A DNA stretch of 64,000 nt from an uncultured Bacilli bacterium (GCA_947627635.1 CANQWT010000001.1:18325-82324); one strand, 5' to 3'; positions 7,002 through 35,776 are shown, numbered from the stretch's first letter. The notes: generated from the sequence alone by a model not told the origin. Made by a program: numbers and translations.

Positions 7002-9122
7002 GTGAATGATATGACAGTTAAAGAGTATGCAGAAGATGTTTCAAAAACAGTAGGGGAAATTCTTGAGCTTTGTAAGTCACTATCTATTCCAGTTGATGAT
7101 GAAGAAAGCTTACTAACCGATGATGCAATAATTATTTTGGATAATCAAATTCAAGATGAAGAAGACTATGTCACAGGAGATGCTGAGACTTTAGCAAAAA
7201 TTGAGATGGATGAGAAGGCAGAAGCTCTTGCCGATATGGTTGTTCAAGAAGAAAAGAACTTTACGAAAGTCAAAAAGAAAAATAAGGAGAAAAAAGAAGA
7301 AGCTCCTAATTTTAAAGAAGAGCGAAAGAAACTTTATAAGCATCGTGAAAAGTTACAAAGTAATGAAAAAGATGTGGATGATACAGTTATTGTTTACAAA
7401 GATGGAATGACAGTCAAAAGTTTGGCAGATGCTCTTGCTGTTCCATCAAGTGAACTGATTAAAAAGCTCATGGGTCTTGGAGTAATGGCCACATTAAATA
7501 ATCCTCTTTCTTTTGAAAATGCTGAGATTTTAGTAGTGGATTATGATAAGACACTAAAGAAAGAAGAAACTCAAGATATTTCTAATTTTGAAAACTATGA
7601 AATAGAAGAAGATGAGAGCAATTTAGTAAAACGTCCTCCTGTTGTAACAATTATGGGACATGTTGACCATGGAAAGACAACTCTTCTTGACTATATTAGA
7701 AAAAGTCATGTTGCAAGTGGAGAAGCAGGAGGGATTACCCAAGCAATTGGAGCTTATCAAGCTTCTTATAAAGATGAAGTGATTACTTTTATTGATACGC
7801 CAGGTCATGCTGCTTTTACAGAAATGAGAGCCCGTGGAGCTTCGATTACGGATATTGTTATTATTATTGTGGCTGCAGATGATGGAGTTATGCCTCAAAC
7901 GAAAGAAGCAATTGACCATGCAAAAGCTGCGAAAGTTCCTATTTTAGTTGCTATTAACAAAGTGGATAAGCCAGATGCAAATGTTGAAAAGGTCATGACT
8001 GGACTTGTTGAAGCAGGACTTACTCCTGAAGAGTGGGGTGGAGATGTACTCGTTTCTAAAATTTCTGCGAAAACAGGAGAGGGTGTTGAAGCACTTTTGG
8101 AAAACATTTTGTTGGTTGCAGAAATGCAGGAATTAAAAGCAAATCCTAAACGTTATGCAACAGGTGCTGTTATCGAGGCACAAATGGATAAGCATGTAGG
8201 AAGTATCGCAAGTATTCTCGTTCAAAATGGAACACTTCGTTTAGGAGACCCTATTGTGGTCGGAACTTCTTATGGTAAAGTAAGAACGATGAAAAATGAT
8301 AGGGGAGAAGAAATTACTGAAGCGCTTCCATCAACTCCAGTTGAAATTACAGGGCTTTCTGTTCTTCCTGCTGCCGGTGATAAGTTTATGGCATTTGAAA
8401 CAGAAAAACAGGCAAAACAAATTGCTGAAGAACGAGCTCTTAGAGTGCGAGAAGAAGATACAAATAGAACAGGAATGAGCTTGGAAGATTTATTTGGACA
8501 AATTCATGAAGGACTAAAAGAAATCAATGTGGTATTAAAGACAGATGTAAACGGTAGTCTAGAAGCTGTTCGTAATTCATTAGAAAAAATTGAAGTCGAA
8601 GGAGTTCGTATCAATGTCATTCGTGGTGGTGTTGGAGCAATTACTGAAAGTGATGTTGTACTCGCTCAAGCAAGTCATGCGATTATTATTGGTTTCAATG
8701 TTCGTGGAAACTTAAAGGTCAATGAAATTGCCAAAGAATATGGAGTAGAAATTCGTCTTTATGATATTATTTATAAAGTTGTAGAAGATATGGAAAGTGC
8801 TATGAAGGGAATGTTAGACCCTGAATATGAAGAAAAAGTTATTGGAACTTTGGAAATTAGACAACTCTTTAAGTTTTCTAAAGTTGGAATGATTGCCGGT
8901 TGTCATGTAACATCAGGAGTTGTTAAAAATAACGCATCAGCAAGACTTATTCGAGATGGTATTGTTATTTATACGGGTTCTATCAAGACTTTACAACATG
9001 AAAAAGACCAAGTAAAAGAAGTCAAAAACAATATGGACTGTGGTCTTACATTATCAGATTTTCAAGATTATAAAGAAAATGATGTCATTGAAGTTTATGA
9101 ACTAATAGAAATTGAAAGGTAA
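7002..9122 (+). CDS. infB: Translation initiation factor IF-2
   Basis: GTPase motifs GHVDHGKTT, DTPGH, NKVD, and IF-2 domain architecture. Confidence 0.95.
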   Translation: MNDMTVKEYAEDVSKTVGEILELCKSLSIPVDDEESLLTDDAIIILDNQIQDEEDYVTGDAETLAKIEMDEKAEALADMVVQEEKNFTKVKKKNKEKKEEAPNFKEERKKLYKHREKLQSNEKDVDDTVIVYKDGMTVKSLADALAVPSSELIKKLMGLGVMATLNNPLSFENAEILVVDYDKTLKKEETQDISNFENYEIEEDESNLVKRPPVVTIMGHVDHGKTTLLDYIRKSHVASGEAGGITQAIGAYQASYKDEVITFIDTPGHAAFTEMRARGASITDIVIIIVAADDGVMPQTKEAIDHAKAAKVPILVAINKVDKPDANVEKVMTGLVEAGLTPEEWGGDVLVSKISAKTGEGVEALLENILLVAEMQELKANPKRYATGAVIEAQMDKHVGSIASILVQNGTLRLGDPIVVGTSYGKVRTMKNDRGEEITEALPSTPVEITGLSVLPAAGDKFMAFETEKQAKQIAEERALRVREEDTNRTGMSLEDLFGQIHEGLKEINVVLKTDVNGSLEAVRNSLEKIEVEGVRINVIRGGVGAITESDVVLAQASHAIIIGFNVRGNLKVNEIAKEYGVEIRLYDIIYKVVEDMESAMKGMLDPEYEEKVIGTLEIRQLFKFSKVGMIAGCHVTSGVVKNNASARLIRDGIVIYTGSIKTLQHEKDQVKEVKNNMDCGLTLSDFQDYKENDVIEVYELIEIER

Positions 9123-9249
9123 TACCTTTCGTTTTCAAATTTCATTCTTATTAAAAGTGGGGTTTAATACTTATTGATCTAGATATTATTTTGAAATTTA
9201 TTGAACTATTAAAAAGTGAAGTGTAACAAAAGAATAAATCAAATATTAT

Positions 9250-9279
9250 TTGACAAAACCTAAAACGTTGTAATATAAT
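9250..9279 (+). promoter_or_regulatory. Sigma-A-type promoter for the pheST leader
   Basis: TTGACA (9250-9255), 18-nt spacer, TATAAT (9274-9279). Confidence 0.45.
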
Positions 9280-9289
9280 CAAATAGAAA

Positions 9290-9515
9290 TTTGTTGATGA
9301 AGAAATTATCTCAGTAGTTTATTTGAAACTCTAAAATTAGGGAATTATGGTCATGGACTGAAAGCCATAATAGATAAGCAAATAGATGAAATTCAATAAT
9401 GGAGTCAAATCGTGAAGAATGCGTTAATCTAAATAAGGTAGTAGGAATACTATAAAAAAAGGTGGTACCACGAAAGCAATTCGTCCTTTTAGGGATGAGT
9501 TGCTTTTTTATTCGA
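9290..9515 (+). promoter_or_regulatory. T-box riboswitch leader (Phe) ending in an intrinsic terminator
   Basis: Conserved T-box core AAAGGTGGTACCACG at about 9458-9472. Then hairpin GAAAGCAATTCGTCC...GGGATGAGTTGCTTTTTTATT, which is a terminator. Lies immediately upstream of pheS. A UUC-containing AAATTCAA segment sits in the candidate specifier region. Confidence 0.6.
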
Positions 9516-9549
9516 TTTCATTAGAGATAAAGGAAAGGAAGATGAAAAA

Positions 9550-10587
9550 ATGAAAGAAAAATTAGAAACGATTAAAAATGAGGGATTAAAACAAATTGAT
9601 GCTACAACAAGTACAGAAGCTCTTCAAGAAGTAAGAAAGGATTTAATGGGAAAGAAAAGTGAATTATCTATAATCCTTAAAACTTTAGGAAGCTTATCTC
9701 AAGAAGAAAGAAAAGAAATAGGACAATTAACAACAGAAATTAAAAATTTATTTGCGACAAAATTGGATGAGAAAGAGGAAACTCTAATGGCTTCTAAAAG
9801 TGTTTTGGATGAACCAATTGACCTGACTTTACCAGGCACAAAAGTAAGTGGTGGTGTACTTCATCCTGTAACACAAATGTGTTATGACTTAAATGATGCC
9901 TTTCGTTCTCTTGGATTTGAGGTCTTTAGTGAAGATGATATTAGTAGTGAGAAGTTTGCTTTTGATAACTTGAACTTCGCCGAAGACCATCCTGCTCGTC
10001 AAATGATGGATACTTATTGGATAGAAGGAACTGAAAATAAATCTGCTTCCGAACGACTTTGCTTGAGACCACACTTAACAGGTGCTTCTGTTCGTTATTT
10101 ATTAAAGCATGGTGCTCCTGCAAGGTTTGTCTATCCTGGTCGAGTTTATCGAAATGAAGATGTTGATGCTAGTCACGAAAGAGCTTTCTTTCAATATGAA
10201 GCGCTAATCGTTGATAAAAACATTTCCTTTTCATCAGGAATGGTGATGATACAAGCAATTTTGGAAAAAGTATTCGGTCGTTCTATCAATGTGCGAATGC
10301 GTGAAGGATTTTTCCCATTTGTAGAGCCAGGATATGAAATTGATATGGAATGCTTGGTTTGTGGAGGAAAAGGTTGTAAGGTTTGTAAACACAATGGTTG
10401 GATAGAAATTATGCCAGGAGGTGTCATTCATCCAAACGTTTTAAAATCCGCAGGACTTGACCCTGATACTTGGACAGGATTTTATATCAATATCGGTCTT
10501 GAAAGATTAGTAATGATGCGTTATGGAGTTGATGATGTGCGCCTATTCCATAGTGCTGACTTACGGTTCTTAGACCAATTTAAATAG
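9550..10587 (+). CDS. pheS: Phenylalanine--tRNA ligase alpha subunit
   Basis: Class II aaRS motifs (FRSLGFEV..., GFGLERLVMMRYG) and PheS N-terminal coiled coil. Confidence 0.95.
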   Translation: MKEKLETIKNEGLKQIDATTSTEALQEVRKDLMGKKSELSIILKTLGSLSQEERKEIGQLTTEIKNLFATKLDEKEETLMASKSVLDEPIDLTLPGTKVSGGVLHPVTQMCYDLNDAFRSLGFEVFSEDDISSEKFAFDNLNFAEDHPARQMMDTYWIEGTENKSASERLCLRPHLTGASVRYLLKHGAPARFVYPGRVYRNEDVDASHERAFFQYEALIVDKNISFSSGMVMIQAILEKVFGRSINVRMREGFFPFVEPGYEIDMECLVCGGKGCKVCKHNGWIEIMPGGVIHPNVLKSAGLDPDTWTGFYINIGLERLVMMRYGVDDVRLFHSADLRFLDQFK

Positions 10588-10597
10588 GAGGGAAAGT

Positions 10598-13021
10598 ATG
10601 AGAGTATCATTAAATTGGGTAAAAAAATATGTTGATTTACCTAGTGATTTAACACCAAAACAAATTGCTTATGACTTGACACTTCGTACTGTTGAAGTAG
10701 AAGAAGTCATTGATGAAAGAGAAAAATATCATGATATTGTTGTTGGAAAAATTTTAGAAATTAGACCACACCCTAATGCTGATAAGTTAAAGCTTTGTAT
10801 CACAGATATTGGCGAAGATGAACCTGTTCAAATTGTCTGTGGAGGCTCTAATTTATATGAAGGAGAAATGGTTGTTGTCTCAAAACCAGGGGCTGAAGTT
10901 GTTTGGCATGGAGAAGGAGCTCCTGTAAAAATTGAAAAGACTAAAATGCGTGGAGAATCTTCTTATGGAATGATTTGTGCTGCCGAAGAAGTCTATTTAG
11001 ATAACTTTTTCCCAAGTAAGGATGAACGAGAAATCGTTGATTTAAAAGGTGTCGAATGTTATCCAGGAGAAAATATCGCAGATGTGATTTGCATGAATGA
11101 CACAGTTTTAGAAATTGACAATAAATCACTAACGAATAGACCTGATTTATGGGGGCATTATGGTGTTGCCCGTGAACTTGCTGTCATTTATGACGTTCCT
11201 TTAAAAGAATTGCCTACTTATAAAATTCCTAAAAATATAAAGGAGTATCAAGTAGAAATTAAAGAACCTAGTAAGTGTCATCGTTACGTTGGTATTGAAA
11301 TTGAAAATGTTTATGAAAAAGAATCTCCAATGTGGATGAAGGCTTTGATTACAAGTTGTGGAATGCGCCCAATTAGTGCTATTGTTGATATTACCAATTA
11401 TGTTATGCTGGCTGTAGGACAGCCTTTACATGCATTTGATAGAACTCATGTTGAGGGTGAGAAAATCATTGTTCGAAATGCCAAAAAGGATGAAGAGTTG
11501 TTATTGCTTGATAATAATACAATTGCTTTAACGGAAGATGATTTAGTAATTAGTGATACTAAAAATGCTCTTGCTTTAGCTGGAATACGTGGAGGTAAAA
11601 AAGACTCTATCTTACCTGATACGACAGGAATTGTTTTAGAAGTTGCTAACTTTACCGCAAGTACAATTCGAAAAACTGGAAAACGCTTTGATGAAAAGAC
11701 AGATGCCTCTATTCGTTATGAGAAAAATATTGATACTGCCCGTGTTGATTTAGGAGTTGCTCTTGCTCTTGAGTTATTTAAAGAACTTTTTGATGAAAGT
11801 AAAATTGTTGCTTATAAAGATGCTTATCCTGTTCCTACAGAGTGTGCAAAAATAGATTTGCCACAAGAATTTTTAGATGTTCGTCTTGGAAAGAAGCTTT
11901 CTTGCGAGACGATTACTAAAATTTTAACTTCTTTAGGTTATCAAGTAAATTTAAAGGACGGAATTTATCATGTGACAGCTCCAATTTGGCGTTCTACAGG
12001 TGATGTTTCTTTAAAAGATGATGTCATGGGAGATATTGCTCGAATTTTGACTTATCAAAGTTTTGAATCCAAACCTCTTACAATTGAATTTTCTCATGCA
12101 GTTCATGATGGCAAGGACTTATTAGAGAGAAGAGTGAAAGAATACTTAGCTTATCGGGCAGGATTTAATGAGATTTATACTTATCCATGGATTGATATCA
12201 AATATATTCAAGCTGCACGAATTGATACAACTTCTTCTGTTCGTCTAGCTACACCCCCTGCGCCTAATCTTGCAATTCTAAGAAGTTCCCTAGTTCCTGG
12301 AATGCTAGAAGCAATTGCTAAAAACTTAAGATACTTTACTGATTTCAAGATTTTTGAAATGGCTCAAGTTGTTGAACAAGGAGAATATCATGAATCTTGT
12401 GAAGAAGAAACTCTTCCTATTCATAAGAAATTTGTAACGGGTGCAATTGTTTCTAAAGATGCCAAAGAAAACTTCTATGAAGTAAAAGGAGTTATTGAAG
12501 AAATGGCTCGGTATTGTCATATGGAAGATTTAACTTTTACAAACGAAGCAAAACCAAGTTGGGCTGATATCAATGCTTATTTAAATGTGGTTCATCATGA
12601 TAAAATCATCGGTTCTATTGGACTTCTTTCGCCAGTTGTTATGAATGATGCTAAAATCAAACGTACAAATGTCGCTATCTTTGAACTTAATTTTGATGAA
12701 TTTATTCCACTTCCATCAAGAACCAACCATTATGAAGCAATTCCACAACTTCCATTGGTTGAAAAAGACTTATCTATTTTAGTAAATTATGAAGTTTCAT
12801 GGGCTCAAATTCAAGAAGCAATTGAAAGTAAGGTTCGTGAGTTAGAGTTTATTGAAGAATATAAAGGAAATCAAATTCCAGCTGGTAAAAAATCACTCAC
12901 TTTAAGAGTTAAAATTGGAAATGATACCAAAACACTTACATCCGAAGAAATCAGCCAAGAAATGGAACATCTATTAAAACTTCTTCATAAAAAGTGTGGA
13001 GCAATTCTTCGCGAAGAATAA
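10598..13021 (+). CDS. pheT: Phenylalanine--tRNA ligase beta subunit
   Basis: MRVSLNWVKKYVDL start and tRNA-binding domain, 807 aa typical length. Immediately downstream of pheS. Confidence 0.95.
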   Translation: MRVSLNWVKKYVDLPSDLTPKQIAYDLTLRTVEVEEVIDEREKYHDIVVGKILEIRPHPNADKLKLCITDIGEDEPVQIVCGGSNLYEGEMVVVSKPGAEVVWHGEGAPVKIEKTKMRGESSYGMICAAEEVYLDNFFPSKDEREIVDLKGVECYPGENIADVICMNDTVLEIDNKSLTNRPDLWGHYGVARELAVIYDVPLKELPTYKIPKNIKEYQVEIKEPSKCHRYVGIEIENVYEKESPMWMKALITSCGMRPISAIVDITNYVMLAVGQPLHAFDRTHVEGEKIIVRNAKKDEELLLLDNNTIALTEDDLVISDTKNALALAGIRGGKKDSILPDTTGIVLEVANFTASTIRKTGKRFDEKTDASIRYEKNIDTARVDLGVALALELFKELFDESKIVAYKDAYPVPTECAKIDLPQEFLDVRLGKKLSCETITKILTSLGYQVNLKDGIYHVTAPIWRSTGDVSLKDDVMGDIARILTYQSFESKPLTIEFSHAVHDGKDLLERRVKEYLAYRAGFNEIYTYPWIDIKYIQAARIDTTSSVRLATPPAPNLAILRSSLVPGMLEAIAKNLRYFTDFKIFEMAQVVEQGEYHESCEEETLPIHKKFVTGAIVSKDAKENFYEVKGVIEEMARYCHMEDLTFTNEAKPSWADINAYLNVVHHDKIIGSIGLLSPVVMNDAKIKRTNVAIFELNFDEFIPLPSRTNHYEAIPQLPLVEKDLSILVNYEVSWAQIQEAIESKVRELEFIEEYKGNQIPAGKKSLTLRVKIGNDTKTLTSEEISQEMEHLLKLLHKKCGAILREE

Positions 13022-24149: not shown

Positions 24150-24800
24150 ACTTGAATATGATATAATGTGAAGCGTAATGGAAATGGCACACTATTCTAG
24201 TCAATTCCTTTATTACGAAGACGGGATTAAACCACCGTTAAAGAGCACATCTGTGAAACTTCTGGTGTTTGCTTCTTACGCCCAGTTTGGGGTGGATGCT
24301 GGAAGGTATGGATAATGGGTAGTCTATAATGGCATATAGATGAATCCCACTATCTTGGAGACCTAAACTTGTGAGATACCTATACGTGCTAACTGATGGA
24401 TATCTTACGACTTAGGTAGAACCTACTATGTGGCGAAAGTTATGAGTAGCGTAGCTTGTCTTGAGTGGAAAAGTTGGGATTTATGAGCTGACCTAATGAT
24501 TTGGCCAAATCGATTAGATAAACTGCATAATGAAATCTTTTCTGCAAAAAAGAATTAGTAATAAAGATTGGTGAGGAAATCTCCTAGAGTGATGTCGTTT
24601 GGGATTGCAGTGGGTACTAAGTGGTGATCAAGCCATACTTTAAGTATTCGACTTTCGTAAGGGGGAACCGCAGAATTGGTAACGATTCTGTAAAGAAGAG
24701 GGAAATCCTGCTTGACCTAAGGCCCAAAGTTTACCAAAGGATAGCCAACCATGATATTGAAATTAAAGTAACTTCGGTTGCTTTTTTTGTTTTTGTAAAT
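24150..24800 (+). ncRNA. Candidate large structured ncRNA (OLE-like?)
   Basis: About 650 nt with no credible ORF and clearly elevated GC compared with flanks (GGGGTGGATGCTGGAAGG..., GGGGGAACCGCAGAATTGG...). Immediately upstream, on the same strand, of a ~21 kDa 4-TM protein with a DxxxD motif. This is the arrangement described for OLE RNA and oapA. Confidence 0.4.
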
Positions 24801-24882
24801 GCATTATTTTATGGCATCAAAAGTCAAAAGCAAATTTACTTTTTCAAAGACTTTCGTTATAATAGAAAACATGAGGTGTCTT

Positions 24883-25488
24883 ATGAACAGAGAAGAAAGA
24901 AGTAAAATTAAAAGTGAGTTAAGAAATTTAGAAGTACAAACTAGAAGAAAAGAGAAGAAAAAGAAAAGTTTAGTAGACTGGAAATGGATAGGAACTATAT
25001 TTTTTGTAGCTTTTGTTCTATCAATGTCTCTTTCATTTGTCTCTGAAACAACCATCAAAGAAGCAAGCCTTCCTATTAGTATTTTGATTACGGTCTTCTT
25101 TATTTGCTTAGGAATTTTATTTGATATTATTGGAGTTTCAGTAACAGCAAGTGATGAAGCTATTTTTCATTCAATGAGTGCGAGAAAAGTAAGAGGAGCA
25201 AAAGTTGCTGTCACATTTAAGAAAAATGCGGATAAAGTATCAAGTTTTTGTTGTGATGTCATTGGTGATATTTGTGGAATTATTTCTGGTGCTTCAGGTG
25301 TTACCATTACAGCACTTTTAACTCAAACTTTTGATTTCCAACTTCTTCCAACAACTTTAGTAGTGACAGGAATGATTTCCGCCCTAACTATTGGTGGAAA
25401 AGCTTTAGGAAAGAGTTTTGCTATCAACAAAAGTAATATTATTCTATATGAGTTTGCAAAAGTGATATCCATAGTTTATAAAGGATAA
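24883..25488 (+). CDS. Small polytopic membrane protein with DxxxD motif (OapA-like candidate)
   Basis: GAGGTG RBS 6 nt before the ATG at 24883. About 201 aa with four predicted TM segments and a conserved-looking CCDVIGDICG (DxxxD). The track ORF from 24799 runs back into the noncoding block. Confidence 0.4.
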   Translation: MNREERSKIKSELRNLEVQTRRKEKKKKSLVDWKWIGTIFFVAFVLSMSLSFVSETTIKEASLPISILITVFFICLGILFDIIGVSVTASDEAIFHSMSARKVRGAKVAVTFKKNADKVSSFCCDVIGDICGIISGASGVTITALLTQTFDFQLLPTTLVVTGMISALTIGGKALGKSFAINKSNIILYEFAKVISIVYKG

Positions 25489-30849: not shown

Positions 30850-31284
30850 ATGAAAAAACCACCCATTGCAAAAGTTTATGAAGCTTTAACTGCAATTGTA
30901 TCAAATCGCGTAGAAATGATGGATGATAAAGCAATTGTCCATTCTTCTACCTTAGAGAAAAGTTATCAAGTGTGTTGGGATGAAAACAAGTATTCTTCAA
31001 CAGATAATGCAAGTGTTTGGCAAGGTTATCCAGGGTATCCCATTATCGCAGTTTTGTTTTTACAAGGACGTCTTCCTTACCACCAAGAACTAGCGATTTA
31101 TCTCAAAGATATTCCATGGAATGATGTCAATAAGAAGTATAAAAGAGACTATGATAAAGCCATTCAAGAAGTCTTACTTCCTATAGATAAAACTGTAAGA
31201 AAAGAATTAGAAGAATATGTATCGACCACTTACCAACAGCTTCTGTCTCTTGATTTAGAAATTGTAAGAACCATAAAAAAATAA
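30850..31284 (+). CDS. Hypothetical protein, 144 aa
   Basis: ORF only. Confidence 0.45.
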   Translation: MKKPPIAKVYEALTAIVSNRVEMMDDKAIVHSSTLEKSYQVCWDENKYSSTDNASVWQGYPGYPIIAVLFLQGRLPYHQELAIYLKDIPWNDVNKKYKRDYDKAIQEVLLPIDKTVRKELEEYVSTTYQQLLSLDLEIVRTIKK

Positions 31285-31325
31285 GCTTCTTCCATCTTGT
31301 AGAAGAGCTTATTCTTATTTTTAAG
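31275..31325. terminator. Bidirectional intrinsic terminator
   Basis: Stem AAGCTTCTTC...GAAGAGCTT with U-rich tails on both strands, between convergent genes. Confidence 0.4.
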
Positions 31326-31326
31326 A

Positions 31327-32340
31327 CTACTTTTCGTTTTCTGATACACTATAAGTATAGACAAATGACTTAGTAGAAACATAAAAGAAATGCTTATTTT
31401 GGGTAGTATCTTTATAATAAATAATGTTTAAATGATTTTGATATGCAACATCGATTAAATCCATAAAACCATCAAGATAAAGAAGTTCTAAATCTTTAAA
31501 ATCAGGCCTATTTTTGACAGATACAATTAAGTCTTTATAATCTTTAAGAAATTTATTGAGCTGTTTTTTAGCTTTATTTTTCTTGATATTATTCTGATAG
31601 AGAAGTAGGATGATAGAGATAAAAAGTACAAATACACTAGAGGTGATAAGAGATAGAATAGTACTGTTTGTTTTATTCTTTTGAATGACTACTTTCTTAA
31701 GTACTTTCGGTGAACTTGTTTTAGAAACTTCCATTATTTCATCAGTAAGTGGAATTAAAATCTCTTGCTTTTCTTTGAGTTTTAAAGGCTTTCTTCCAGG
31801 TATTGTAATTTGATAGGTCACAGTAAAACTAGATTTGATAAAGGCATCTACTTTTATGGAATAAGTATCTTCATACTGTTTTACTAGTTGTTGATAAGTA
31901 CTGTAATCAATTTCTTGTGTCGTATTTCGTTGCCATTTCTTTTTGTTTTCTATTGAAGCATTCTCTTTCTTATTTAAAATGGTCTTCTTCCATATTTCTT
32001 TAGAAACTCCATCTTTGTTTGTATGAGTAGCAACTAATTCTTGTTGTTCCTTTTGAACAAAAGAGATAGATACTTCTTTGTTACTTTCTCCTTTGACTTG
32101 AAAATCAATATTTAAAGATGAGACTGCATTTTTGGGATAAATTTCTTTACTTTGTTGTTCTTGATAGAAGAAGTTCGGTTTTAGTAGAACTCTATAGTGA
32201 CTGTTTTTATAAGATTTAATTTGATAGACTTGTGTATTATTTTGAGCGAATATAACATTGATGATGATAAGAAGACTTCCTAAAAGAAAGAGTACACCTA
32301 ATAAAATCATTTCAGAAAAATATCTTTTTTTCATGTTCAT
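31327..32340 (-). CDS. Hypothetical bitopic membrane protein, last gene of the tasA-like/sipW-like operon
   Basis: N-terminal TM, ~200-aa exposed domain, second TM near residue 225, then a charged tail. Confidence 0.45.
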   Translation of the reverse strand: MNMKKRYFSEMILLGVLFLLGSLLIIINVIFAQNNTQVYQIKSYKNSHYRVLLKPNFFYQEQQSKEIYPKNAVSSLNIDFQVKGESNKEVSISFVQKEQQELVATHTNKDGVSKEIWKKTILNKKENASIENKKKWQRNTTQEIDYSTYQQLVKQYEDTYSIKVDAFIKSSFTVTYQITIPGRKPLKLKEKQEILIPLTDEIMEVSKTSSPKVLKKVVIQKNKTNSTILSLITSSVFVLFISIILLLYQNNIKKNKAKKQLNKFLKDYKDLIVSVKNRPDFKDLELLYLDGFMDLIDVAYQNHLNIIYYKDTTQNKHFFYVSTKSFVYTYSVSENEK

Positions 32341-32365
32341 AATTCACCTACTTCAATTTTTCTTT

Positions 32366-33499
32366 TTATTCCTCTTTTAAAACGTCATGTAACCAAATAG
32401 AGGGGAAGCCAAGATATTTTAAAGAAAAACAATAAACTCCTTTAATTTGTTGTACTTTGACAAAGTTGTTATCAGGCATATTGTTATTGTCTCCTTTTGT
32501 TTGATAGAAGATATCATTTCCTTGTTTTACTACTTTAAAAATTCTATGAGCAACAAGTTGATGGGATGTTTCAAAGACGATAATCTCTTGTTCTTTTAAC
32601 TGCCTTTTTTCTATAGAAGATAACTTTTTTAAGACAATAACATCTCCTCTTTGGTATGTGGGATACATACTGTTTGATAAAATCGCAAGGGGCTCATAAC
32701 GAAAGATGCCTAACATGAAACTTGTGAAAATCGTCGCAAAAATTAGGACAAATGCATATAGTAACAATATAAAAGAATTTTTCTTTGGAAGATGGGAGAA
32801 GGGAAATTCTTTTATAGAATGATATTTAAAAATCATAGATAACAACAAGTATTTTATTAAATGAATAGAACCAGTTATATACCAGTTTGTAAAGGGAAGA
32901 ACTGGAAAGAGGAGAAGTGGTACTTCTTCTAAAAGCCGAAAGAGAATGGAAATACAAGAAGAGGTTTTATAGTCTAGGTAACTTGAATAGATATGGTTCA
33001 TTAGAAAGGGAAGCATTGTTCCTAAAAGAAATTGAAAGAACATTTCTTTGTTAGAAAATGAATATGTAAAGAAAGGATAGGGAATGGTTATTATGATAAG
33101 AAAGAGTGTGGAAAGAAAGAGTGCAGGTTTGTTTCTTTGATTTTTGATAATGAGAATACTTCTTAGATATTCAGTACTAAAAATAAGAAGTCCACTTGAT
33201 AATAGATTTTGGATGATACCTAGAATATTTTGGTTATAAGGATTTGTTTGAAATCCTACAAAAAAACCTAGACTAAAGTAACTGAGATGAAAAAGCAGTA
33301 CTAAAAAAATGATGGCAATGAAATCTTTCTTATTTCTAGTAAATCGAATGATATGAACATTTTTGTAATAGAATGCGACAAGAAGGAATACAATTCCTAT
33401 CAATAATTCTATTTTTTGATAAAGAGAAGTGCTACTTGAAAGAAGAAGTATTCCAGTTGATAGAAGGAATAAGAGCAATATAACTGTTTGTTTTTTCAT
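32366..33499 (-). CDS. Fusion protein: ~270-aa polytopic membrane domain plus C-terminal SipW-like type I signal peptidase (S26)
   Basis: C-terminus LSNSMYPTYQRGDVIVLKK...HRIFKV...TKGDNN carries the S26 catalytic Ser and GDNN box. The N-terminal 270 aa are about 8 hydrophobic helices with no match to anything I recognise. Confidence 0.6.
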   Translation of the reverse strand: MKKQTVILLLFLLSTGILLLSSSTSLYQKIELLIGIVFLLVAFYYKNVHIIRFTRNKKDFIAIIFLVLLFHLSYFSLGFFVGFQTNPYNQNILGIIQNLLSSGLLIFSTEYLRSILIIKNQRNKPALFLSTLFLIIITIPYPFFTYSFSNKEMFFQFLLGTMLPFLMNHIYSSYLDYKTSSCISILFRLLEEVPLLLFPVLPFTNWYITGSIHLIKYLLLSMIFKYHSIKEFPFSHLPKKNSFILLLYAFVLIFATIFTSFMLGIFRYEPLAILSNSMYPTYQRGDVIVLKKLSSIEKRQLKEQEIIVFETSHQLVAHRIFKVVKQGNDIFYQTKGDNNNMPDNNFVKVQQIKGVYCFSLKYLGFPSIWLHDVLKEE

Positions 33500-33501
33500 A
33501 A

Positions 33502-34026
33502 TTATTCTTGAACATATTCAATAATGCCAGTAATGGTTTTACTCTTAGTTGTTGGTGGGATTTTGGAATTTTCATCATAAGTTACAATGACATCAAAAGA
33601 AGTTTTCTCTCCAGCTTTGAGTTTGTTTGCAAAGGAAGTTGTCTGATAAAGAATGGCACTAGAACCTGTTTTTTCATCAGTTTGGAAGACGACATTTTCA
33701 AGTTTTGCATTGATAGAACCTAAGTTTTGAATGGTGACGCGATAGATAATTTCATCTTTTGGTTTTACTAATTGAGCATTGAAAGTTGCACTTGTGTTTG
33801 TGAAACTAGGTGTTCCAGGATTTGTTCCTTCACTTGCTTGGACGACTTCGATATTGGTAATTCTAACATCCCAAGCACCTATAATTTCAGCACTTCCACT
33901 CAAACGAAGTTGGGTAGCAAAAGAGGCATATCCAACAGCCATAATGAGTAAGAGAAACAGAAAAATACTCAAACTCAAAAGGATTTTCTTTTTATTTTGA
34001 CGCATATTTTTAACTCCTTTCATCAT
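33502..34026 (-). CDS. Secreted TasA/CalY-like (SipW-cognate signal peptide) protein candidate
   Basis: Long signal peptide ending AVGYASFATQLRLSGSAEI, similar to the TasA-type leader (GGTWAAFNDI...ASGT). Directly upstream of and co-directional with the sipW-like gene. Confidence 0.4.
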   Translation of the reverse strand: MMKGVKNMRQNKKKILLSLSIFLFLLLIMAVGYASFATQLRLSGSAEIIGAWDVRITNIEVVQASEGTNPGTPSFTNTSATFNAQLVKPKDEIIYRVTIQNLGSINAKLENVVFQTDEKTGSSAILYQTTSFANKLKAGEKTSFDVIVTYDENSKIPPTTKSKTITGIIEYVQE

Positions 34027-34163
34027 TTTGTCCTTCTTTTTTGATGAATGGCTTTGATTATGAGTCCTAATGTATTATATGCCAAAAAAACTTTATGTTT
34101 AGGCGAGAAAGACAAAGTAAGGAAAAGAAAAAGACTTCGTTTGTAGAAGTCTTCTATTTCAAT

Positions 34164-35213
34164 TTAACCTAAATCAATTCCTGATAAAAATCTCCGTTCC
34201 AAATGGAGTTGTTTTTCTTTTTCCATAGTTTCTTTTGAAATGTTTGGATAAGTTTGCATGACTTGATTTTCATAAGCAGCATTAAAGGTCTGTAATTGTG
34301 ACAGGATACCTTGCATTTGATTTAATATTTCCACTATTTCTTGTTGACTTTTAACATCCTCTATTTTTTGTGTTACTTTTTGAAAGTATTCAAAACTGTG
34401 GGCTAAATCATTACTAGCAACAGCCAAGTTGACAGAGTTTTTTATGGCTTGGTATTCAGCACCTTTTTGAGTTGCAAGATGATGAATGAGACCAATTGTG
34501 GTATCTGTTGTAATGCCATCGGGAAGTCTATCTATATCAAATACTAAAGTATTTAAGTATATTTTTCGACTAGTATCATTGATATTTTTATAAGTACCAT
34601 AACCATTTGTCCCAATTCTAAGACCATAACAAGACCCAGTTGTCTTATATCTTATTGGGTCTTCTAAGTAAGCAGGAAGCACTTCCATATTTTCTAAAAA
34701 GATAAATTCATTATCAAAAGAATCCACTTGATATTCTTCATTTTTAAAATCAATATCTTCTGAATAGTAAATGGTATCAAATCCTAAATCACTAACTTTT
34801 GAAGCAACTTTTTTAATTGTATCGATATCTTTAGGATGGTTTTTTAGGTATTCATAAAAATAATCTTCAGATAGTCCTTTTATTCTTTTTCCTTTGGCTG
34901 TATAACAAAAAAGTGTAAAGTCACTTAAATAGGAACGTTCTTTTAAAATATCAATGGTTTTTTTGTGTTTGTCAAGGAATGGTTTGTATTTATTGTTAGA
35001 TGCTTTTCCTTGCATTACTCTATATAGTTTTTCGATTAAGTTTTTATCATTTTTAGAATGAACTAAGTTTCCTAAATCTTCATAAAAAGACTGATAATCT
35101 TCTTTGATTTCACAGAGTACGACTAAGTGATTTACTTTGATAGCATGACTATTTTCTTCCCAATTTTCAGTTATATTTAAACGCATAACGAACCCTCCAT
35201 ACCTCAATATCAT
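34164..35213 (-). CDS. Hypothetical protein, ~340 aa
   Basis: ORF with no motif recognised. Very AT-rich. The start may be the internal Met (MRLNITENW). Confidence 0.45.
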   Translation of the reverse strand: MILRYGGFVMRLNITENWEENSHAIKVNHLVVLCEIKEDYQSFYEDLGNLVHSKNDKNLIEKLYRVMQGKASNNKYKPFLDKHKKTIDILKERSYLSDFTLFCYTAKGKRIKGLSEDYFYEYLKNHPKDIDTIKKVASKVSDLGFDTIYYSEDIDFKNEEYQVDSFDNEFIFLENMEVLPAYLEDPIRYKTTGSCYGLRIGTNGYGTYKNINDTSRKIYLNTLVFDIDRLPDGITTDTTIGLIHHLATQKGAEYQAIKNSVNLAVASNDLAHSFEYFQKVTQKIEDVKSQQEIVEILNQMQGILSQLQTFNAAYENQVMQTYPNISKETMEKEKQLHLERRFLSGIDLG

Positions 35214-35335: not shown

Positions 35336-35776
35336 TTAGTCTTTTCTTTCTTTAAAGGAATGTAGGATTTCTCCACTTGTTGCATCAATATAGTATTCAT
35401 ATTCATATCTTTGATAATCAAAGTCAATTTCATAAACAGTCTTACCATATTTGTAGTCGAATTCTACACTGATATCATAAATATCATTTTGATTTAACTT
35501 AGCACTTTCTAAAGCAATGGAAAGCGCTTTTTCTTTAGAAATGTATGTTGTGTCAGTTTGAATTTCATGATTATCTTCATCATCATCTATATCATGAGTG
35601 ATTTGACCTTGATTTGCTGAGTTATTGGTTGATGATTTTCCTTCTTTTCCATTGATTGCAAAGATTAAAAGAACAACCAATAAAATAGTTATCATTCCTA
35701 GTAACATAGGAACAATCCAGTTAATAACGTCATTTTCTTTTTTTGTTTTTACTTCTTTTTCCTTCATATTTCCCAT
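35336..35776 (-). CDS. PepSY domain membrane protein
   Basis: TM segment plus PepSY-like ISKEKALSIALE...TVYEIDF...YEYYIDATSGEIL. Confidence 0.6.
   Translation of the reverse strand: MGNMKEKEVKTKKENDVINWIVPMLLGMITILLVVLLIFAINGKEGKSSTNNSANQGQITHDIDDDEDNHEIQTDTTYISKEKALSIALESAKLNQNDIYDISVEFDYKYGKTVYEIDFDYQRYEYEYYIDATSGEILHSFKERKD

Follow-up and report, generated by a model that had tools for sequence, protein, structure and literature searches.

A signal peptidase fused to a CAAX-protease-like membrane domain in a putative AbpX-type fiber operon of an uncultured Bacilli bacterium

What might a signal peptidase gain from being fused to a large membrane domain, and for which protein is such an enzyme made? 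The question is raised by three genes on the minus strand (34026..31327) of a 64,000-nucleotide (nt) stretch of DNA from an uncultured Bacilli bacterium (hereafter the window; G+C ~30%). A reading made from the DNA alone (the sequence-only reading) had proposed a TasA/SipW-type operon there, in which a secreted protein is followed by a signal peptidase joined to an eight-helix membrane module and then by a further bitopic protein. Three co-directional open reading frames (ORFs) do lie where that reading had placed them, at 34026..33502 (gene 1), 33499..32366 (gene 2) and 32340..31327 (gene 3), separated by gaps of 2 and 25 bases and encoding products of 174, 377 and 337 amino acids (aa), and the two strings it had quoted, SMYPTYQRGDVIVL and GDNN, both fall inside the 377-aa protein. 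The three genes probably constitute a bacterial AbpX-type (TasA-superfamily) fiber locus, and on balance we favor the fuller explanation that this is an AbpX-like fiber or matrix operon with private processing machinery, in which the N-terminal domain of the peptidase (the N-domain) is a non-catalytic partner.

The features of gene 2 are as follows.

32792..33499, minus strand: N-domain, residues 1-236, with eight transmembrane (TM) helices and a predicted CPBP/Abi-like fold
33172..33170 (E110) and 33163..33161 (R113), minus strand: codons of an invariant pair on helix 4
32711..32788, minus strand: ninth TM helix, residues 238-263, in the model the peptidase's own N-terminal anchor
32366..32710, minus strand: Sec11/SipW-type signal peptidase I domain, extracellular, residues 264-377, with no C-terminal helix
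32671..32669 (S277) and 32548..32546 (H318), minus strand: catalytic codons, followed by those of D337 and D343

The assignment of the C-terminus to a SipW-like S26 peptidase was borne out by two family models, TIGR02228 (87.7 bits, cut-off 51.85, residues 240-367) and Pfam Peptidase_S26 (29.4, cut-off 22.9, over about the same residues), while the score against the Bacillus SipW equivalog NF046067 was 79.5 bits, below its cut-off of 190. S277, H318 (within an AHR motif), D337 and D343 are invariant in 232/232 family members, and the catalytic set is thus of the Sec11 type (Ser/His/Asp) and not of the LepB type (Ser/Lys); the spacing of the four residues resembles that in Sec11. The family models have a C-terminal membrane helix that neither profile match reaches, and a hydrophobic C-terminal tail was found in 0/232 family sequences, so the peptidase must be anchored only by helix 238-263 and what precedes it.

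Given that a frameshift or an assembly error could have joined two unrelated genes into one 377-aa ORF, a concern that the sequence-only reading had itself raised, it was necessary to ask how widely the fusion is found. Relatives of the whole protein numbered 103 at E < 1e-28, ranging from 210 to 411 aa but almost all of 360-400 aa, and a pattern scan restricted to one genome per species confirmed the fusion at 282 loci. A search with a profile limited to residues 1-236 recovered 1,615 clusters at 50% identity, 1,257 of them below 1e-10, and among the best 150 of the 1,615 the proteins were again mostly 360-400 aa long, the rest being shorter and fragment-sized. Exact copies of the 377-aa protein are present in metagenome assemblies of the ENA, and 232 full-length family members, from many independent assemblies, share one continuous fused reading frame. 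The only thing that speaks for an artefact is that two short relatives (L089, 207-1400, and L090, 106-1290) look as if their N-domain and their peptidase were encoded by two genes. These splits, however, consist of one +1 frameshift and one in-frame TAA in an A-rich run, with the peptidase continuing downstream, on contigs with coverage of ~2x, and are probably errors or pseudogenes. An artefactual fusion therefore has a negligible probability. Stand-alone N-domain genes had also been considered as a natural split control, and were set aside when the two that were inspected proved to be sequencing or assembly defects.

An AlphaFold2 model of gene 2, built with 37 sequences, had a mean predicted local distance difference test score (pLDDT) of 86 and a predicted template modeling score (pTM) of 0.79, the latter, for a whole chain, suggesting a defined packing of the two domains. 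Nine membrane-length helices precede the catalytic domain in the model, eight belonging to the N-domain and one being the peptidase anchor, in keeping with the membrane module of the sequence-only reading.

That reading recognized no similarity for the N-domain, and sequence methods did no better: Pfam, NCBIfam and a profile search of PDB sequences gave no match, and a word-indexed search with the N-domain profile for named proteins of cultured organisms returned only the same metagenomic family. When plasmids were searched by tblastn, only the peptidase domain was matched (Enterococcus, Bacillus, haloarchaea), with no match to the N-domain; an artificial CPBP consensus gave nothing in the PDB; and no canonical CPBP genes were found by motif search in the window or in 80 related loci. 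A fold, however, was found. When the model was compared with the PDB, the top membrane-protein matches were three in number and all of the CAAX-protease/CPBP/Abi type, the next membrane protein scoring 5.1, and the N-domain has the eight helices of the Rce1 fold. As modeled, then, the N-domain is a CPBP fold with a degenerate active site.

The degeneracy is seen on comparison with active CPBP enzymes, whose three motifs are EExxxR, FxxxH and HxxxD/N (PMC12260438). In the N-domain, E110 and R113 are each 99% conserved in 232 sequences and form an E110-x-x-R113 pair on helix 4, with a single Glu three residues before the Arg; a Glu at position 109 occurs in only 13/232. The second and third motifs are absent, there being no helix position with His in as many as 15% of the 232 sequences. 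The window protein itself has two histidines, His169 and His213, in settings that look like FxxxH and Hxxx motifs (FLMNH and GSIHLIK), but the family has Asn (71%) at the first position and Gly, Glu or Asp at the second, and judged by the alignment the resemblance is accidental.

Because the histidine motifs needed for CPBP proteolysis have been lost, we take the N-domain to be most likely non-catalytic. The contrary proposal, that it is an active intramembrane protease which uses Glu110 to clear the leftover signal peptide or to make a second cut in the substrate, has some attractions. The invariant pair lies on helix 4, where Rce1 has CPBP motif 1, active CPBP enzymes that work on surface or secreted proteins exist (MroQ and myxosortase), and fusing two proteases that act sequentially on one substrate would be sensible. 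It is nonetheless unlikely, given that both histidine motifs are missing, that the distance from Glu to Arg is three residues, where EExxxR has four and five, and that SpdC, LnsB and SpbR, whose motifs are similarly degenerate, are non-catalytic (PMC12260438).

Further N-domain residues are conserved (G78, G82, Y88, N98, F155, P164, Y174, P199, P202 and W206), and some of these cluster in two predicted extracellular loops, G82/Y88 and P199/P202/W206, on the side of the catalytic domain. Since the catalytic domain must be outside, the N-terminus should be cytoplasmic, an orientation that basic loops at 46-56, 116-124 and 232-237 fit as inside segments; with that orientation the two conserved loops would be extracellular and E110/R113 would sit in that half of the bilayer which faces the cytoplasm. 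The sequence-only reading had also remarked that an exosortase Cys/Arg signature is not evident, and this holds for the family: conservation of any one cysteine reaches at most 33% in 232 sequences, and there were no matches to exosortase or archaeosortase models of NCBIfam.

Which protein, then, would this enzyme process? The candidate is the product of gene 1.

33502..34026, minus strand: gene 1, a secreted subunit like those of the AbpX/TasA superfamily, 174 aa from the first ATG
33925..34026, minus strand: signal peptide, residues 1-34, with a basic n-region, a 17-residue h-region and a conserved c-region M-A-V-[G/A]-Y-[S/A]
33868..33924, minus strand: N-terminal extension of the mature protein, residues 35-53, AFATQLRLSGSAEIIGAWD, highly conserved, a candidate donor strand

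The true start is probably Met8 (ATG at 34005, giving 167 aa), because relatives begin there and a strong AAAGGAG site lies 8 nt upstream, whereas the site before the first ATG (34026), GAAGGA, is weaker and stands just 4 nt away. Relatives of gene 1 numbered 76, mostly of ~164 aa, and the N-terminus is the most conserved region of the family. Cleavage is predicted after Ser34, and the small residues at -3 and -1 make a type I cleavage site plausible. Counted in 65 family members and numbered from the predicted cut, the flanking columns are Met at -6 (65/65), Gly or Ala at -3 (65/65), Tyr at -2 (64/65) and Ser or Ala at -1 (64/65). Conservation continues beyond the cut, with Phe at +2 (62/65), Thr at +4 (58/65), Leu at +6 (59/65), Ile or Leu at +8, Gly at +10 (63/65), Ile at +14 (64/65) and Trp at +18 (64/65), within a consensus that reads [A/T/S], F, A, T, Q, L, x, [I/L], N, G, T, A, E, I, x, G, E, W, D, V, K, I.

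A model of the gene 1 product (pLDDT 88) showed a seven-stranded beta-sandwich formed by residues 54-173 and a helical signal peptide; residues 40-53 had no regular structure in this monomer, and residues 35-39 still continued the signal-peptide helix. The protein ends in a beta-strand, GIIEYVQE, with no C-terminal helix or sorting tag. Taken together with the conservation, we infer that residues 35-53 serve as a donor strand, and the subunit would polymerize by donor-strand complementation.

The alignment with AbpX bears directly on this proposal. Using hhalign, we compared the 65-sequence profile with the single Pyrococcus abyssi AbpX sequence, taken from a preprint supplement, and obtained a probability of 74.5% (E 2.7e-5) over 134 columns, a span that runs from the AbpX signal peptide through the cut site and donor strand into the core. 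The cut sites fall in register (marked by an arrow; ...LTYA↓QWSETLSLSATI in AbpX, ...VGYS↓AFATQLRLSGSA in the window), the AbpX site ...LTYA↓QWSE sharing its register with the gene 1 cut and the AbpX donor strand W2-I12 aligning with the extension. TasA, with a query sequence that is approximate, gave 39% over 61 columns. By these comparisons the gene 1 protein appears to be a remote relative of archaeal AbpX within the TasA superfamily, and AbpX, not TasA, its closest characterized relative. An HMMER search of PDB sequences from the gene 1 family did not find AbpX. The family is acidic, with a median isoelectric point (pI) of 4.35 and 14.4% Asp+Glu; the window subunit is its least acidic member (pI 5.22, 10.7% Asp+Glu).

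The third gene, described by the sequence-only reading simply as a further bitopic protein, has the two hydrophobic segments that this implies and belongs to a known family.

31327..32340, minus strand: gene 3, a DUF5305 bitopic membrane protein, proposed as an accessory subunit of the signal peptidase

Its match to PF17231 (E 1.2e-11, 44.9 bits against a cut-off of 29) covers profile positions 6-217 of 217, and its layout is a helix at the N-terminus, then a domain outside the cell, a further helix (~226-249) and ~90 aa of cytoplasmic tail.

The gene order was examined in the 80 related loci that were kept, which come mostly from rabbit-gut and in a few cases from human-gut metagenome-assembled genomes labeled as uncultured Clostridia, Bacilli or 'Tenericutes'. 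The small-protein gene lies upstream of the fusion in 78/80 loci and a DUF5305 gene follows it in 71/80; the complete order of small protein, fusion and DUF5305 is found in at least 57/80, with 12 more having extra small genes or a split DUF5305. Synteny is kept in the most distant members inspected, where the motif takes the form AYA↓ALSTTL.

Some of these loci hold further proteins. In 17/80 an extra protein of ~300-380 aa is encoded between the small gene and the peptidase gene (the window is without one), and the four longest of these (L001, 4911-5828; L013, 643-1569; L045, 4688-5836; L051, 3686-4837) carry the N-terminal cleavage/donor-strand motif. The L051 protein, the only one scanned for domains, has CBM_2 and Big_2 domains, and the extra protein is a candidate carbohydrate-binding tip subunit. 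In the distant locus L086, which has three small-subunit paralogues, a giant protein with Listeria-Bacteroides repeats (7250-11131, 2,062 aa, running off the locus) is encoded just after the DUF5305 gene and starts with the shared motif, ...TIAYS↓AFTSSLQI; the dedicated peptidase may thus also process large adhesins. Because the motif is common to small subunits and adhesin-like proteins, it looks like a class-specific N-terminal signal, and the extra proteins and the giant repeat protein would suit a role as tips or adhesins that this one enzyme matures.

A simpler view of the small protein would be that it is a monomeric beta-sandwich of the surface or cell wall, similar to CARDB or DUF11 proteins and forming no fiber, and that the aromatic residue at P2' just makes it a poor substrate for the housekeeping enzyme. 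The Pfam matches of the 65 members, all weak, are in fact to DUF7507 (65/65), CARDB (60), DUF11 (54) and Peptidase_M73 (26, best E 1.1e-3, the window protein itself being unmatched), and the first three of these are found in many non-filamentous surface proteins. Fold searches with the gene 1 model were non-discriminating and returned generic Ig-like domains, and in the window the gene is present in single copy with no gene for a minor subunit or an anchor. Against this, a monomer does not account for conservation that reaches 18 residues past the cut in an alternating beta-strand pattern that the monomer model leaves unplaced, nor for the alignment of that very segment with AbpX, a solved donor-strand fiber, nor for related loci in which additional paralogues and adhesin-like proteins have the same N-terminus. 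We consider a purely monomeric protein improbable.

The assignment to an AbpX-type locus gains further from what has been reported of AbpX loci in archaea and Bacillota (bioRxiv 10.64898/2026.01.04.697558). The dedicated peptidase there "possess[es] ten transmembrane helices", a DUF5305 protein, which in some cases forms one chain with it, probably acts as accessory subunit, some loci add further minor or tip subunits, and AbpX homologues are acidic, with a pI of about 4 and ~15% Asp+Glu. The operon in the window shares with these loci a small acidic TasA-superfamily subunit whose amphipathic N-terminal donor strand bears an aromatic side chain in position 2, and a dedicated many-helix signal peptidase of the TIGR02228 type accompanied by a DUF5305 accessory protein; it differs in its host, an uncultured low-GC gut Bacillota. 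The architecture described by the sequence-only reading is thus less new than it had seemed there, ten-helix peptidases with DUF5305 proteins having been reported for AbpX loci in January 2026. CAAX, CPBP and Rce1 go unmentioned in the preprint, which also leaves the fold of the extra helices unnamed (bioRxiv 10.64898/2026.01.04.697558), and no literature linking CPBP to a signal peptidase fusion was found. The operon is consequently a new example of a recently described kind and not a new kind; what this analysis adds is a fold assigned to the extra helices, together with the parallel to SpbR and SpsB discussed below.

The likeness to the tapA-sipW-tasA operon of Bacillus subtilis is real but partial. 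SipW has only flanking membrane helices, and the NCBIfam SipW model has 189 positions, compared with 377 aa and nine helices in gene 2; nor is there a TapA here. The Bacillus system too encodes a dedicated archaeal-type Ser/His peptidase together with a beta-sandwich fiber subunit, and TasA, which likewise has Phe at P2', polymerizes by donor-strand exchange; the SipW dependence of TasA has been attributed to this Phe (PMC10269814). Of the TasA/SipW-type operon that had been proposed for this DNA, therefore, the beta-sandwich subunit, the aromatic P2' residue and the dedicated archaeal-type peptidase stand, and the SipW-cognate signal peptide does not, TIGR04088 giving no match even at E <= 10. 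Haloarchaeal tat-fimbriae provide a second parallel: the DUF5305 protein TafG accompanies the signal peptidase TafD, deletion of tafD blocks pilin processing, and both are encoded with donor-strand pilins. TafD, however, has four helices and a second extracellular domain and lacks a CPBP-like domain, and the pilins are exported by the Tat pathway.

For the N-domain the closest precedent is in Staphylococcus aureus, where SpbR, a CAAX-protease-like protein with degenerate motifs, co-purifies with the signal peptidase SpsB, contacts its membrane helix and extracellular domain, and inhibits its cleavage activity in vitro (PMC12260438). In both cases a type I signal peptidase has a polytopic, degenerate CAAX-protease-like protein as its partner. 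The two S. aureus proteins are not joined, however, and SpsB is a bacterial Ser/Lys housekeeping enzyme that SpbR inhibits, whereas the window encodes both modules in one chain, the enzyme being of the Ser/His kind and its operon specific to a substrate.

These considerations lead to the following proposal. The gene 1 product would be exported by Sec on its long signal peptide, and the Ser277/His318 active site of gene 2 would cut after ...M-A-V-G-Y-S34. The newly exposed N-terminus, A-F-A-T-Q-L..., would act as the donor strand and join subunits head to tail. The N-domain would either offer the cognate signal peptide a docking place within the bilayer or control what reaches the active site, in each case restricting the enzyme to proteins with a Y-[S/A]↓x-[F/L/I] motif, and the fusion would be the covalent equivalent of SpbR, a pseudo-CAAX protease, bound to SpsB, with the DUF5305 protein as a further accessory subunit. 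Docking or gating by a non-catalytic N-domain is the best supported of the roles considered for this domain, although its likelihood is a little under even.

Given that the only studied pairing of a pseudo-CAAX protein with a signal peptidase, that of SpbR with SpsB, is inhibitory, it was reasonable to consider that the N-domain might instead hold the peptidase inactive until a signal is received, so that fiber production would be switched post-translationally. Permanent fusion of an inhibitor to a dedicated enzyme whose only evident substrate is in the same operon would be hard to explain, however, no sensory domain is present, and a fusion fixed across >1,600 clusters is better fitted by an obligatory positive role; such an inhibitor is accordingly very unlikely. 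That the operon encodes a coupled secretion and polymerization machine, as the sequence-only reading had suggested, is a possibility. A more speculative scheme goes beyond docking or gating. The N-domain, the peptidase and the DUF5305 protein might together form a membrane platform that holds the signal peptide in an intramembrane cavity and releases the cut N-terminus into the growing fiber, a minimal chaperone-free assembly machine for donor-strand fibers of Gram-positive bacteria, or else the N-domain might be a novel kind of Glu-dependent protease by which the used signal peptide is cleared. Both ideas would account for Glu and Arg being invariant in >200 sequences despite an otherwise lost CPBP active site, but we regard this scheme as having only a small chance of being right.

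Returning to the favored explanation, an AbpX-like operon with a non-catalytic N-domain, several points weigh against it. PF02517 went undetected at E <= 1 in the window protein and in 19 N-domains, so that the CPBP link is one of fold alone, and E110/R113 are only tentatively equated with CPBP motif 1. The buried, invariant Glu-Arg pair could be catalytic after all, or could bind something other than a signal peptide. On the fiber side, the AbpX structures 9sj2 and 9rhp were absent among the fold matches listed for the gene 1 model, although both are in the copy of the PDB sequences, and donor-strand position 4, an acidic, calcium-binding residue in AbpX, is Thr here (Ser in 6/65, Thr in the 58/65 given above). 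Finally, gene 2 has nine helices and no C-terminal helix where the peptidases of AbpX loci have ten, a comparison made by description only.

Other systems in which membrane proteins and signal peptidases or sorting enzymes come together resemble the operon less. In the eukaryotic signal peptidase complex (SEC11, SPC12, SPC22/23, SPC25) the accessory subunits are separate chains and their fold is not CPBP. SipA of Streptococcus pyogenes lacks catalytic residues and serves sortase-built pili, whereas in gene 2 the catalytic residues are all retained, and the part of the window that surrounds the operon yielded no sortase. By the title of its structure entry, SipA/LepA is a signal-peptidase homologue essential for pilus polymerization (PDB 4n31). 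Exosortases, archaeosortases and myxosortase, the last a CPBP-family protein that acts as a sorting enzyme, are like the fusion in being polytopic membrane enzymes dedicated to surface proteins that share a short motif. Their substrates, however, carry a C-terminal tag with a membrane helix and the enzymes keep their catalytic residues, whereas the motif in the window is N-terminal and neither Cys/Arg nor His motifs are conserved in the N-domain. The analogy to sortase and exosortase systems drawn by the sequence-only reading finds no support, as a sorting tag at the C-terminus and a catalytic set of the transpeptidase type are both lacking.

Gene 2 belongs to a large family: the N-domain profile matches no fewer than 1,615 clusters at 50% identity, and 282 or more species-level genomes carry it. 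None of its members is known to have been studied, and its distribution suggests that many gut commensals make AbpX/TasA-type fibers or matrix proteins. The fold assignment joins the many-helix peptidases of AbpX loci with the pseudo-CAAX control of signal peptidase known in S. aureus, and a natural fusion is independent evidence that the pairing of pseudo-CAAX protein and signal peptidase is old and widespread. It also offers a single-chain object for studying how a partner shapes signal-peptidase specificity, and the N-terminal motif, an h-region followed by [G/A]-Y-[S/A]↓x-[F/L/I]-x-[T/S]-x-L, could become a search model for substrates.

The limits of the operon are indicated by three sequence signals.

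34074..34101, minus strand: promoter-like site upstream of gene 1, TAAACA, a 16-nt spacer and TATAAT, by consensus match only
34155..34129: terminator-like hairpin closing the preceding 349-aa ORF, just before the promoter-like site
31275..31310, minus strand: hairpin AAGCTCTTC ... GAAGAAGCTT with a run of seven T behind it, immediately past the stop codon of the DUF5305 gene

The last hairpin was read directly from the sequence, is missing from the list given by the terminator scan, and also serves the convergent gene 30850..31284. With a promoter-like site, tightly spaced co-directional genes and a terminator hairpin, the three genes look like an independent operon. Its flanks encode a FemAB-like protein, a PepSY protein and several proteins without assignment. 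Directly upstream is the 349-aa ORF (34164..35213, minus strand), which has no Pfam or NCBIfam match, and this is preceded by the membrane-anchored PepSY-domain protein (35336..35776, minus strand). Neither these two nor the FemAB-like and 144-aa proteins recur beside the operon in the 80 related loci, and no genes for SLH or LPXTG anchors, sortase or cyclic di-GMP (c-di-GMP) functions adjoin it in the window.

Elsewhere in the window, at 24168..24764 on the plus strand, lies a full-length ornate large extremophilic (OLE) RNA (RF01071, 354.5 bits, model positions 1-616 of 616). The 229-aa ORF that comes right after it (24799..25488) gave only a weak match to an OPT transporter, and could be the OLE-associated membrane protein.

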